Part shown: positions 2,655-5,635 of the stretch, piece after piece
Layout of the letters: each line of letters begins with the position of its first letter
How positions within the stretch are numbered: the stretch's first letter is position 1
Source of the DNA: Candidatus Latescibacterota bacterium
GTDB taxonomy: Bacteria; Latescibacterota; UBA2968; UBA8231
Direction of reading: 5' to 3'
NCBI GenBank assembly: GCA_963422735.1
Contig: OY730476.1
Span: 1,984,001 to 2,048,000 of the forward strand
DNA: 64,000 nucleotides
Position numbers and translations under genes: made by a program
The notes under the pieces: generated by a model
Seen by the model: the letters and a program-made list of their open reading frames with translations, nothing else
Databases searched by the model: none
Told to the model about the DNA's origin: nothing

Positions 2655-2686
2655 AAAGAGAGGGAGGATGATTCCCCCCTCTCTTT
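2655..2686 (-). terminator. Intrinsic terminator-like hairpin after 2724..3629
   Basis: 14-bp arms AAAGAGAGGGAGGA / TCCCCCCTCTCTTT with a 4-nt loop; one G-U pair on the minus strand. Confidence 0.65.
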
Positions 2687-2723
2687 TTCTTTGCACAGGT
2701 CAAACAACAGAATGTTCGGTCAC

Positions 2724-3629
2724 TTACTCGCTCAGCGAAGCCTTGATGCGGCCCCAAGAATCTTCTTCGACCGCTGTTTCATCAATGTCACCACCTAGGC
2801 CGACCAAGCGAGCATCGACAAAGCGTTCGGCAAAACGCCACGTTGCAGCCTGACCAGATATGGTGTGGAAGGCACGATCCTGGCCCGGAGCCTGATCCGT
2901 ATCCGGCGTCGAAATCTGGTACCCAATGATATTACCTTCGACGAGAGGCGTCGCGATGCTGTCGTCGGGACTGTTCCAGATCAGATCGTCGAAAGGCGTA
3001 CAGAAAAACTCAATGATGCTAACCGTTGGCCCGTCGCCAATAGAGACGCCACCACCATCGGCATAGGGTAGATCGTTGACCCACTCAGAACCTGCACCCA
3101 AATAGAAAACGTGACGCCCTGAAGGATCATCCGCGACGGCGATGTACTGCTGCGCCGTGCGATTGTTGTTCAGTTTCTTCTCTTCTTCAGTCCACTCCTC
3201 GTTGGCCGAACCAGTGTAGTCGCCTCCAGTGTGGTCACCGTCGAGCATAACTTCGATGGCCTCATAATTCCAAGGACTACTCCCGTCGTACTCCCTGCCG
3301 AAGTACACGTTGTCTATACGCTCCATGGCGAACCAGATCGTGCCTCCATTGCCGTTCCAGCCTGTCCAGATACGGTAGTCAAGGTCCGCCGGATCGTACT
3401 GGGCACCGTCGCCCACTGTGGGATCCTGATAGAGATCAGTAGGGAGAAACTGGGGGTCACCCATTACATCTTCCCAGTCCTCGACGGTGCCATCATTAAA
3501 ATCAAGGTCAGCCAGATCCGCATCGGCAATCTCAAAGAGCAGGTAAACCTTTTCACCAATATGTGCATTAGCACCGCTTGTCAGGCCCAATATCAGACCC
3601 ATAGCGACAAGGCCATATAGACGTTGCAT
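2724..3629 (-). CDS. Secreted acidic protein, CBM9/DOMON-like fold suspected, with C-terminal SWGRIK motif
   Basis: Signal peptide (ANA-H); DGTVEDWED, EAIEVMLDGDH and IEF motifs resemble CBM9-like domains; SD GGAAGGAG; ends TAVEEDSWGRIKASLSE. Confidence 0.7.
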   Translation of the reverse strand: MQRLYGLVAMGLILGLTSGANAHIGEKVYLLFEIADADLADLDFNDGTVEDWEDVMGDPQFLPTDLYQDPTVGDGAQYDPADLDYRIWTGWNGNGGTIWFAMERIDNVYFGREYDGSSPWNYEAIEVMLDGDHTGGDYTGSANEEWTEEEKKLNNNRTAQQYIAVADDPSGRHVFYLGAGSEWVNDLPYADGGGVSIGDGPTVSIIEFFCTPFDDLIWNSPDDSIATPLVEGNIIGYQISTPDTDQAPGQDRAFHTISGQAATWRFAERFVDARLVGLGGDIDETAVEEDSWGRIKASLSE

Positions 3630-3646
3630 AAGCTGTGACTCCTTCC

Positions 3647-3978
3647 AATATCCCTTATAGGGAGTGTGGTGGTGTTTTGGGACAACGACCTTTTCGGCTC
3701 AATCTGCGTAGCACGGGCTATCGCTTATTACCTCACATAGGTCGGTCTTCCCCGAATAGTTAAGCCAACCTTTCCTCGTGTGTATCAGGAGCAACTCGCC
3801 TGACTGAGGCTACACGCTAGCTTACTAGCTTAGACGTAAACCGATTGGCTCCGCCTTAGGTTAGAAGGCTTATATCTTAATAGATAATTAATTCAATATA
3901 GTAAATCCTCCGCTGTGTTGCAAGTATTTTATATTCTGCAGTGACTGGCCCGTTGGCATACTCCCTATAAGGGATATT
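3647..3978. repeat. Perfect 19-bp inverted repeat pair (3647-3665 and 3960-3978) bounding a 332-bp segment; candidate invertible element
   Basis: AATATCCCTTATAGGGAGT at 3647 and its exact reverse complement ACTCCCTATAAGGGATATT at 3960; extends to 22 bp with one mismatch. Confidence 0.9.
3895..3923 (-). promoter_or_regulatory. Sigma70-like promoter inside the inverted-repeat segment, facing 2724..3629
   Basis: Minus strand TTGCAA (3923-3918), 17-bp spacer, TATATT (3900-3895), with AT-rich flanks. Confidence 0.65.
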
Positions 3979-4001
3979 ATCGGGAGTTAAACAAGACGCA
4001 C

Positions 4002-4919
4002 TTATTGAGAATCTTCGGCGCTGTCGTCAGCACTATCTCCGGTGTTATCTCCGGCAGTGTCGTCAGTGCCATCTTCAGCACTTTCTTCGTCCTTATCTTC
4101 TCGAAAGCGAATCTGCTTTATGTCGTGCATACCAATCGCAAACGGACTCGAACCTACGACGCCCGTAAAGGCTTGGTTGACGCGCTCGAAATAGCTCTTG
4201 TCGGTCTCTCCCGAAAGGCGGACTAGGCTCGCCTCGACCATACCCATAACGGTTTTTCCCGACCGATAGGTCGCCGTTATCGGCCTAAACTCGTCGCCCG
4301 TCCCGCCGTCCTCAAAGTCGATTCGCGCCACTTTGTCTAGCGGAATAAAACGCTTGCCGCGGCCCTTGAAAAAATCGAGCCGCTGCTTGCCGTGAAAGCG
4401 CAAATCTTCCACCTCAAAGCGCCTGCCGTTTATCGTGATGATCGTGGCCTTGAGGATTTTTTCCGCAGGCGGCTCCTCGCCGATGGGATGGCGCAAGACA
4501 ATCTCTTGCACATCGCTGGCGAGAATGAAGAACGGCCCTAGCTCAGTCACCCCAGCGAAGCGACGCCCGCTACTTCCACCGCCGACGGCGTCTTGGTGGG
4601 GCGAAGAAGATCCGCCCGTCACCATCGAGCCCGCTTCTTGGCCGCCGTTCCGGAACACGAGCACGACGCGCTGTTCCTCGTCACTGCGCTCTCCTTCGAA
4701 ACGCAATCTAGCAACCCTGACCAGTTCCACCAGCCGACGCTGCCCTTGGACGTAGATTTCCAAATCCTGACGCCCCTGAAAGGTGAACTTATCCACTTGG
4801 TGCTGGTTCCCGTAGCGATCGATAATGGTCGCCTTGAGGGGGGAAGTAGCAGCTCCACTGGCTGATACCCATAGCGCGGCCAAAAGTGCAACTTCACCCC
4901 ATAATCTTTTGCGCTTCAT
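4002..4919 (-). CDS. Secreted hypothetical protein with two internal repeat domains and an acidic tail
   Basis: Signal peptide; two units that both begin LKATII; D/E-rich C-terminus. Confidence 0.75.
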   Translation of the reverse strand: MKRKRLWGEVALLAALWVSASGAATSPLKATIIDRYGNQHQVDKFTFQGRQDLEIYVQGQRRLVELVRVARLRFEGERSDEEQRVVLVFRNGGQEAGSMVTGGSSSPHQDAVGGGSSGRRFAGVTELGPFFILASDVQEIVLRHPIGEEPPAEKILKATIITINGRRFEVEDLRFHGKQRLDFFKGRGKRFIPLDKVARIDFEDGGTGDEFRPITATYRSGKTVMGMVEASLVRLSGETDKSYFERVNQAFTGVVGSSPFAIGMHDIKQIRFREDKDEESAEDGTDDTAGDNTGDSADDSAEDSQ

Positions 4920-4939
4920 GGCATTGCTCCGCGATAAGC

Positions 4940-5635
4940 CTAAGGCTGTGCGGCCCCTTCGCTCCCGCTTTCGCCCGGTTGTGCCGGTGAGGGGGGCGGT
5001 CCGATGAGAATGTTCTGGGTCTGTCCCATGCTTACCTGTACGAGCCTGATTTCGTCCAAACCAGTGGGAGAATTTTCAATCCGCACCTTGTAATCGCCCA
5101 CCGGCACAATAAAGTAGCGCACCTCTGTCGAGGTCATGCCCCGACCCAGCATAGTCCGCAAATTGTAGTCAAAAATTAGGAAAGGCATCTGACTGCGGCC
5201 CTGAGCATCGGAAAAAATGACCTGAAAACGGCCGATGGGTATGGTCGCGTACATTTCCTGTCCCATTAGAACTTCGACTTCCTTCTCGACGCTGTCGTCG
5301 ATATCCGTATTGACCACAACCCGATAACTGCCAGGGTCCAGATCGACAAATTGCGGCAGAGAGCGGTAGCCCGTCTCGTATCCTATGGGTGAACTCGCAG
5401 CCCTGCGCGGCGATTCCGAGTGAACCTCCTCGCCGGTTTCTTCGTCGAGGACATAGTAGTTTACTTCGTTGATCCCTCCCGTCTCCAACATGAGCCGCCC
5501 CTTGCCCTCGGGAATGGGCGGCAGACCATAACCGCCTCCGCTACCTCCGGTTGTAGCACAGCCAGCCACAACAGCCGCTAACGCACCGACCAGAAGCCAC
5601 TTACGCACCTGCGTATATTCGACTTTCGACGCCAT
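4940..5635 (-). CDS. Hypothetical lipoprotein with PEGA/Ig-like beta domains
   Basis: Lipobox VVAGC; repeated LDPGSYRV / VPVGDYKV motifs; SD AAGGAGG. Confidence 0.7.
   Translation of the reverse strand: MASKVEYTQVRKWLLVGALAAVVAGCATTGGSGGGYGLPPIPEGKGRLMLETGGINEVNYYVLDEETGEEVHSESPRRAASSPIGYETGYRSLPQFVDLDPGSYRVVVNTDIDDSVEKEVEVLMGQEMYATIPIGRFQVIFSDAQGRSQMPFLIFDYNLRTMLGRGMTSTEVRYFIVPVGDYKVRIENSPTGLDEIRLVQVSMGQTQNILIGPPPSPAQPGESGSEGAAQP

Follow-up and report, generated by a model that had tools for sequence, protein, structure and literature searches.

The 294-bp segment at 3666-3959 of the window, i.e., the whole 64,000-nt stretch of the Candidatus Latescibacterota bacterium genome analyzed here (G000:C1:1984001-2048000, part of one 4.95-Mb contig), is quite probably an invertible promoter (inverton) lying between two oppositely oriented 28-bp sites of the tyrosine-recombinase type. 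This arrangement, hereafter locus 1, had been put forward in a preliminary description as a promoter switch assembled in its ON orientation and flipped by a recombinase encoded elsewhere. That reading is supported by a second pair of sites of the same plan, by a conserved Xer-like gene preceded by a cognate-looking site, by flipped paralogues in the related genome G042, and by one recombinant junction among the contigs of a sequencing run (X1).

Ongoing flipping at locus 1, the rate of flipping, the enzyme responsible, and the effect on expression are matters that we infer, and the mechanism would be as follows. The recombinase would bind the arms of both oppositely oriented sites, and strand exchange across their identical TATCCC spacers would turn over the 294-bp cassette of promoter and leader. 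As assembled (ON), the promoter would drive a leader of ~259 nt together with the gene of a secreted protein with a SWGRIK tail, whereas in the flipped state (OFF) it would read antisense into the 3' end of the gene at 4002..4919, leaving the SWGRIK gene silent. The Shine–Dalgarno (SD) sequence and the controlled gene would remain in place through the flip. Moreover, a private spacer would confine each switch to its own pair of sites, apart from the other switches and from the site of the enzyme itself.

Anatomy of the promoter segment and the controlled gene

The perfect 19-nt inverted repeat of the preliminary description was recovered (AATATCCCTTATAGGGAGT at 3647-3665, with its exact reverse complement at 3960-3978), and it lengthens to 31 nt at 84% identity (3638-3668 and 3957-3987). 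With up to 3 mismatches allowed, the 19-mer occurs at just these two places within the window, and 0 of 100 shuffles contained any match; the repeat is beyond chance expectation. The repeats are thus real, as had been claimed, but the emphasis placed on a TCCCT-TAT-AGGGA core within each of them is less useful than a 28-bp reading, in which an 11-bp arm, a 6-bp spacer, and another 11-bp arm follow each other at both ends of the segment. Under this 11-6-11 plan, the 19-mer takes in the complete inner arm and spacer but just 2 nt of the outer arm. Judged by its sequence, the plan is that of a dif-type core site for a tyrosine recombinase. The features of locus 1, in window coordinates, are listed below.

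2659..2679, minus strand: terminator-like hairpin 3' of the controlled gene
2724..3629, minus strand: controlled gene, encoding a 301-aa signal-peptide protein that ends in ...TAVEEDSWGRIKASLSE (...SWGRIKASLSE)
3638..3665: putative proximal recombination site, 28 bp, ACTCCTTCCAA TATCCC TTATAGGGAGT, defined by sequence anatomy; outer arm 3638-3648 (ACTCCTTCCAA), spacer 3649-3654 (TATCCC), inner arm 3655-3665 (TTATAGGGAGT)
3639..3646, minus strand: SD sequence GGAAGGAG of the controlled gene
3666..3959, minus strand: putative invertible interior, 294 bp, with the promoter and most of the ~259-nt 5' leader
3895..3923, minus strand: sigma-70-type promoter TTGCAA-17-TATATT (9/12), aligned in 18 group-1 relatives
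3960..3987: putative distal recombination site, full 28 bp, ACTCCCTATAA GGGATA TTATCGGGAGT, defined by sequence anatomy; inner arm 3960-3970 (ACTCCCTATAA), spacer 3971-3976 (GGGATA, on the other strand TATCCC), outer arm 3977-3987 (TTATCGGGAGT)
4002..4919, minus strand: upstream gene, 305 aa, of no family, with its stop 14 nt from the distal site

Two further claims, namely that a promoter (TTGCAA-17-TATATT, 3923..3895 on the minus strand) is aimed at 2724..3629 and that the SD adjoins the left arm, were both borne out, and the start of transcription is predicted near 3888. The outer arm of the proximal site is degenerate, agreeing with the distal outer arm at 7/11 positions, and the SD is the complement of this proximal outer arm. 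Since the SD lies outside the crossover region, it would stay with the gene after a flip. Inverted repeats around a promoter beside a gene, which make up the layout of a promoter inverton, are all present at locus 1. The interior is lower in G+C than its flanks (0.41-0.45 vs. ~0.57), and across the genus its ends are conserved and its middle is variable. ARAGORN detected no tRNA or tmRNA in the window. A promoter-like element (TTGGCA-16-TATTAT, 10/12) was also seen on the plus strand at 3953-3980, over the distal site and aimed antisense into the upstream gene.

The product of 2724..3629 falls into no Pfam or NCBIfam family. Its C-terminus places it among ~36 ORFs of G000, mostly of ~300 aa, that share a (TAVE..)[ST]WGx[IVL]K tail followed by a few further residues; the tail could serve as a hitherto undescribed C-terminal signal for sorting or anchoring. 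Two SWGxIK-tailed proteins out of this family of ~36 ORFs were tested, and neither matched an NCBIfam or Pfam model. The controlled proteins of locus 1 and of the second locus described below have no detectable mutual similarity, though both belong to the SWGxIK-tail set. The nearest named homologues of the controlled protein and of the Xer-like recombinase are both labelled Latescibacterota. Many close homologues of 2724..3629 are located on contigs of only ~0.95-1.4 kb, which could represent assembly breaks at a variable switch or, alternatively, transcript-like assemblies.

Further sites and their distribution in the genus

A genome search for the 19-mer, which the preliminary description had called for, returned 3 copies in 4.95 Mb and no dispersed family. 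The third perfect copy (C1:2789151-2789169) is located ~800 kb off and constitutes a full 28/31-nt duplicate of the distal site. It has no partner site within 5 kb, its flanks were sought in 5 relatives and found in none of them, and its surroundings are a glycan-type cluster. If any matched pair of sites recombined freely, this third site would yield a large inversion or deletion, a consideration that counts against the inverton. The WbqC-like gene beside it is duplicated 28 kb off (C1:2817360, L004), and there only a half-site-like remnant follows the gene. A RAYT/Y1 transposase acting on a REP-like hairpin was considered and dropped, given only 3 fragmentary PF01797 matches and only 3 copies of the element.

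A check for such sites around the promoters of other secreted genes had also been proposed, and a second pair of the same plan surrounds the promoter of another SWGRIK-tagged gene. This locus 2 was found by searching G000 for any ATAA-N6-TTAT element and then for partners of the elements obtained.

C1:2789142-2789169 (L003 1492-1519): solitary third site, between a DegT-type aminotransferase gene and a WbqC-like gene, with the same spacer as locus 1
C1:572182-572357 (L162 2182-2358): locus-2 site pair, a 20-nt repeat (TAAAAATAATTATCGGTAAT) with 128 bp between the sites; distal site ACTATTTATAA AAATAA TTATCGGTAAT; proximal site sharing this spacer and the inner arm, its outer arm being degenerate

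The interior of locus 2 contains a promoter (TTGACA-17-TAAATT) aimed at the gene of a 299-aa signal-peptide protein that ends in SWGRIKGYMVQ and has a weak CBM9-like match, and the locus is divergent from a solute-binding-protein gene. Inverted-repeat pairs of at least 19 nt within 3 kb number only 12 in the 4.95-Mb genome, loci 1 and 2 being among them. Locus 2 is paired in 6 of the 24 genomes examined, and in all 6 the promoter faces the gene and the spacer is identical in both sites; in G007, both sites show the same spacer change (AAATAG) and the same two arm changes. Moreover, G042 contains three more pairs with interiors of 130 bp and the spacers CAACAA, TAAAAG, and TAAAAG. The 28-bp 11-6-11 plan is found in full in the distal site of locus 1, the third copy, site A of locus 2, and the G042 sites, and with one degenerate arm in the proximal site of locus 1.

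The syntenic region of locus 1 is present in 24 of 24 same-genus genomes and in 0 of 16 genomes of other families. Paired sites were found there in 12 of 25 genomes, the spacer and inner arm (17 nt) being identical in 10 of them and 1 base off in 2; the remaining 13 genomes offer at best a partner with 5-7 mismatches and nonetheless keep the promoter. At locus 1, five genomes have the spacer TATCCC, four TACCCC, two TGCCCC, and one TTCCCC, and the inner arm has A, C, or G as its fifth base depending on the species, with both sites of a genome sharing the variant. These site variants are interleaved on a flanking-gene tree (420 nt, only partly resolved). Since the sites vary between species and yet match within pairs, they have not drifted independently, and something keeps both sites alike. 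Besides the spacers, the inner arms also co-vary, and as simple recombinase logic makes no such demand, this counts against the inverton.

Taking all loci together, partner sites have identical spacers in 21 of 21 pairs (12 from locus 1 and 9 from locus 2 and G042), which present 8 different spacers, although the locus-1 partner was defined as the best 17-nt match, a procedure that leans towards identity, whereas pairing at locus 2 and in G042 ignored the spacer. None of these 8 spacers equals that of the site beside the Xer-like gene described in the next section. A loose pattern, ATAANNNNNNTTATMRRKART, has 92 matches in the 31 genomes vs. 3 for a reversed control. To judge from these sites, locus 1 is one member of a small genus-wide family of switches. 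A metagenome scan with ACTCCCNATAAGGGNNATT gave at least 119 stretches and, among the matches listed, none with the flanks of the locus; this pattern is too loose, and thus the scan says nothing either way. Other repeats observed in G000 are a small MITE-like family with terminal repeats (TCTAAGAAGCGTTCTTAAAA) ~115 bp apart (C1:1883332, 2434692, 2449105, 1504422), many heptamer repeat arrays of the CACTAACCACTAAC type, and two copies of a 32-nt palindromic element 409 bp apart (C1:3420825-3421297), situated 3 kb from a 403-aa integrase-like gene (3424423-3425634).

Evidence on inversion and the candidate recombinase

A flipped state at locus 1, which the preliminary description had proposed to look for in related genomes, was found in 0 of 23 assessable group-1 relatives, all of them being assembled ON. 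These 23 comprise the 18 relatives of the alignment, in which the promoter and both interior ends align in the orientation of the window, together with G018 and 4 more genomes; the count leaves out 5 more distant genomes with an unalignable intergenic region, G041 (contig end), and G044. In G018, two nested MITE-like insertions totalling ~1.1 kb (L014 about 763-1860), flanked by the 8-bp duplications ACATTCTG and CCCGTTGG, are located between the promoter and the distal site, and both sites are still perfect though 1.4 kb apart.

An inverted segment was found in the three extra switches of G042. These were duplicated together with part of the locus-2 flank (5' region of the solute-binding-protein gene), which extends >150 nt outside the sites, and comparison with locus 2 of G000, G006, G018, G007, G004, and G042 itself places the site-bounded segment in inverted orientation relative to the homologous flank, with the change of strand falling inside the sites. 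The internal promoter is aimed at the flank remnant and away from the real neighbour gene, which at one of these loci (L226) encodes a dynamin-like GTPase. Since the three copies are mutually related, they document at least one inversion and not three.

Logan contigs of four runs (X1, X4, X5, and X6), i.e., contigs and not raw reads, were compared with window positions 2700-4950. The X1 contigs break exactly at the arm ends, one of them ending at 3665 and a 343-nt unitig corresponding to 3636-3978, and the depth of the unitig over the native right junction (3949-3989) is 65.5 vs. ~98-105 in its neighbours, which would suggest a recombinant frequency of up to about one third in this run. One X1 record runs on from 3978 with GGAAGGAGTCA; this is the reverse complement of 3636-3646 and, thus, exactly the predicted recombinant junction. 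The reciprocal junction is absent from the X1 contigs, in which neither the 3636-3978 unitig nor the third-copy contig branches at the expected join. This one-sided junction evidence is suggestive, since Logan contigs have low-coverage paths removed and no depth is given for the junction record. The inverted junction was found in one of the four runs, the three others having no branch, and the contigs of X4 (depth ~1400) and X5 (~216) run through. X6 represents a variant strain in which 18 nt are inserted after 3768, within the variable middle part of the interior; the insertion resembles the sequence of relatives at that place.

The absence of a recombinase from the window, noted in the preliminary description, was confirmed with the Phage_integrase family (4 matches in the genome, 0 in the window) and with Resolvase (0 in the genome). 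The four proteins are a XerC-like protein (316 bits), XerD (336 bits, above the cut-off), the 403-aa integrase-like protein, and a divergent 326-aa Xer-like protein. The score of the latter against XerC is 130 bits (cut-off 335), and its closest solved relative is XerD 1a0p, with which several motifs align that are presumably the catalytic ones of the family. Its gene is present in 29 of 31 genus genomes, with 89-93% identity in the main group, and homologues at 60-70% identity are labelled Latescibacterota.

G000:C1:741627-742607: gene of the Xer-like recombinase, 326 aa, 1.25 Mb from the switch
C1:741569-741596: recombinase-adjacent 28-bp site, ACTATCTATAA CAGGCA TTATCGGTAGT, 30 nt upstream of the start
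C1:739155-739182 (L161 2155-2182): more dif-like element, ATGTCTTATAA AATTTT TTATGTAAATC, intergenic, 2.4 kb from the Xer-like gene

The recombinase-adjacent site overlaps the TTGACT-17-TATACT promoter of the Xer-like gene in G000, and a 28-bp site is found upstream of this gene in 26 of 29 genomes, with the spacer CAGGCA in most of them, CGGGCA in G045 and G046, and CAGACA in G041. Its spacer is reversed relative to the gene in G006 and G042. The arms of this site agree with those of the distal site at 9/11 and 10/11 positions in G000, and in G021 both match the genus-consensus distal-site arms at 11/11. The genome also encodes XerC-like and XerD proteins, but the switch arms resemble the site of the third Xer-like gene instead. 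Since the switch sites and the recombinase-adjacent site form one family, the adjacent Xer-like recombinase is the natural candidate, and adjacency and site similarity, the two grounds for the assignment, make this conserved third recombinase a reasonably likely enzyme of the switch.

The Xer-like gene and its site are located at a sharp GC-skew switch, with the global maximum of G000 at 741,529. The skew is +0.045 to +0.069 in the 20 kb to the left and -0.055 to -0.070 in the 20 kb to the right of the locus in 9 of 9 genomes examined, and these nine loci, being orthologous, represent one conserved feature and not nine. Of 2000 random positions in G000, 1.3% have a left-minus-right difference of at least 0.1. 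Across the genome as a whole, GC skew is patchy and does not allow the window to be placed relative to the terminus. The element at 739155-739182 has what we take to be the look of a canonical dif site, and AT-rich matches ~2.5 kb from the Xer-like gene were also seen in G020, G018, and G002. The idea that the distal site of locus 1 is the chromosomal dif was dropped on account of its fast evolution in relatives and of the better dif-region candidate at 739-742 kb. A broader scheme, tentative and somewhat doubtful as a whole, is that the third Xer, situated at the GC-skew switch (probable terminus) and 2.4 kb from the dif-looking site, might run a genus-wide network of promoter switches in trans, in which private 6-bp spacers would serve as 'addresses'. 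The site in its own promoter would couple switching to the expression of the enzyme or act as a dimer-resolution site, so that a housekeeping Xer would have been taken over for the phase variation of the ~36-member SWGxIK-tailed family and other genes.

Alternative explanations and known recombination systems

The absence of the flipped state from all 23 relatives, the degenerate proximal outer arm, the decay of the pair in 13 of 25 genomes that keep the promoter, and the unbranched contigs of X4 and X5 would all suit a relic, i.e., an inverton that once worked and whose flipping at locus 1 has stopped or become extremely rare, with the promoter in effect fixed ON. This is unlikely, since a relic would drift independently at its two sites, whereas the 17 nt of spacer and inner arm are perfect in 10 of the 12 paired genomes and 1 base off in 2 despite the differences between species, and since a recombinant junction is present in X1. 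Selection for pairing in RNA could in principle produce the same co-variation if the distal site formed a stem-loop at the 3' end of the upstream mRNA and the proximal site a 5'-UTR hairpin by the SD, with the 19-bp stem of read-through transcripts serving as an RNase III target or SD trap. Relatives lacking the repeat indeed keep the potential for a distal hairpin through compensatory changes (CTGCCGA/TCGGCAG in G009, ACTTCCGATAA/TTATCGGAAGT in G022), a small CCC-loop-GGG hairpin precedes the SD in 18 of 18 group-1 relatives of the alignment, and ACUCC is able to pair with GGAGU of the SD; such local hairpins may be a by-product of palindromic sites that are incidentally transcribed. However, RNA elements leave unexplained the third identical copy 800 kb off, the same architecture before the recombinase gene, the flipped paralogues, and the DNA junction in X1. 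In four genomes with A at the variable arm position, moreover, the distal stem has a G/A mismatch and the two sites still agree. The predicted fold of the leader (3895..3620) is unremarkable (z = -1.69), and Rfam gave 0 matches at E<=1 on 3000-4600, hence no curated covariance-model RNA. Taken together, this makes an RNA function of the sites very improbable.

A pair of operators, on which a dimeric DNA-binding protein would loop or repress the promoter, is in keeping with the palindromic nature of the sites, with the overlap of one of them with the -10 region of the promoter of the recombinase gene, and with the position of another beside the SD. Operators, however, would have no reason to carry private pair-specific spacers (21 of 21 pairs, 8 spacers), nor would they explain the inverted interior of the paralogues and the X1 junction, and this possibility is accordingly remote, slightly more so than the RNA elements. 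The terminal inverted repeats and the lower G+C of the interior would fit a MITE or other small mobile element that brought the promoter along, but the genome has no dispersed copies of the segment and no target-site duplication, and the extra G042 copies were duplicated with >150 nt of flank outside the sites. Since the interior ends and the promoter are ancestral, being conserved in relatives without the repeat, this alternative fails and its probability is next to negligible.

The inverton between tyrosine-recombinase-type sites can be set beside several known systems. In fimS of Escherichia coli, a 314-bp promoter segment with 9-bp inverted repeats is flipped by the tyrosine recombinases FimB and FimE, with the RBS and gene staying in place; unlike the switches described here, the fim system has adjacent recombinases and a single locus. 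The sites of the Rci/sfx shufflon are asymmetric, with the spacer and one arm conserved and the other arm not, and only inverted sites recombine; shufflons, however, shuffle coding segments of a pilus tip gene and flip no promoter. One recombinase acting in trans on several promoter invertons of surface structures is known from RecV of Clostridioides difficile (cwpV and other switches) and from Tsr/Mpi of Bacteroides. Both lineage and repeats differ here, and we know of no description of dif-like 11-6-11 sites with private spacers in those systems. In the single-recombinase modules XerS/difSL and XerH/difH, the site is located just upstream of the gene and at a strong GC-skew switch. The Xer-like gene described here resembles them in having a 28-bp site upstream and in lying at a GC-skew switch, but its genome also contains XerC-like and XerD genes and a separate dif-looking site 2.4 kb off.

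A further likeness is that to the pXerC/D (pdif, Re27) sites of Acinetobacter plasmids, which are 28-bp 11-6-11 dif-like sites whose opposed pairs invert reversibly and whose active inverting pairs have identical 6-bp central spacers (PMC9947245), in agreement with the spacer pairing and mechanism proposed here. Their enzyme, too, is encoded elsewhere. Those plasmid sites, however, lie around resistance genes and other gene modules and are recombined by the housekeeping XerC and XerD. In contrast, the switches considered here are chromosomal promoter cassettes of 125-300 bp, their arms are like the site by a third, divergent Xer-like gene, and the proximal site has one good arm. An Xer-family recombinase that switches surface proteins of a multigene family is Xer1, which drives the vpma inversions of Mycoplasma agalactiae (PMC2268961). 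There, xer1 lies beside the locus and one promoter is moved among several genes, whereas in the present genome every controlled gene is served by a cassette of its own, with the candidate enzyme encoded 1.25 Mb off.

Promoter inversion by tyrosine recombinases, including Xer relatives, and inversion between dif-like sites are therefore already known. What is new is the lineage, the layout in trans around a single conserved, orphan Xer-like gene, the occurrence of private spacers in several switches, a proximal site that is half degenerate and merges with the SD, and the class of controlled genes. No report of phase variation in Latescibacterota was found in the literature searched, and a genome paper on Latescibacterota nowhere uses the terms inversion, invertible, phase variation, or recombinase. 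Neither Latescibacter nor Xer is mentioned in the main text of the DeepInverton survey, whose supplementary tables might list such loci. Should the switch prove functional, programmed phase variation would be indicated for the first time in this uncultured lineage. The switch could also provide a natural example of a 6-bp spacer giving each switch its own identity under one enzyme, which would be useful for engineering orthogonal inversion switches, and it would imply that the SWGxIK-tailed proteins are probably exposed at the surface, with selection acting in favour of variable expression.
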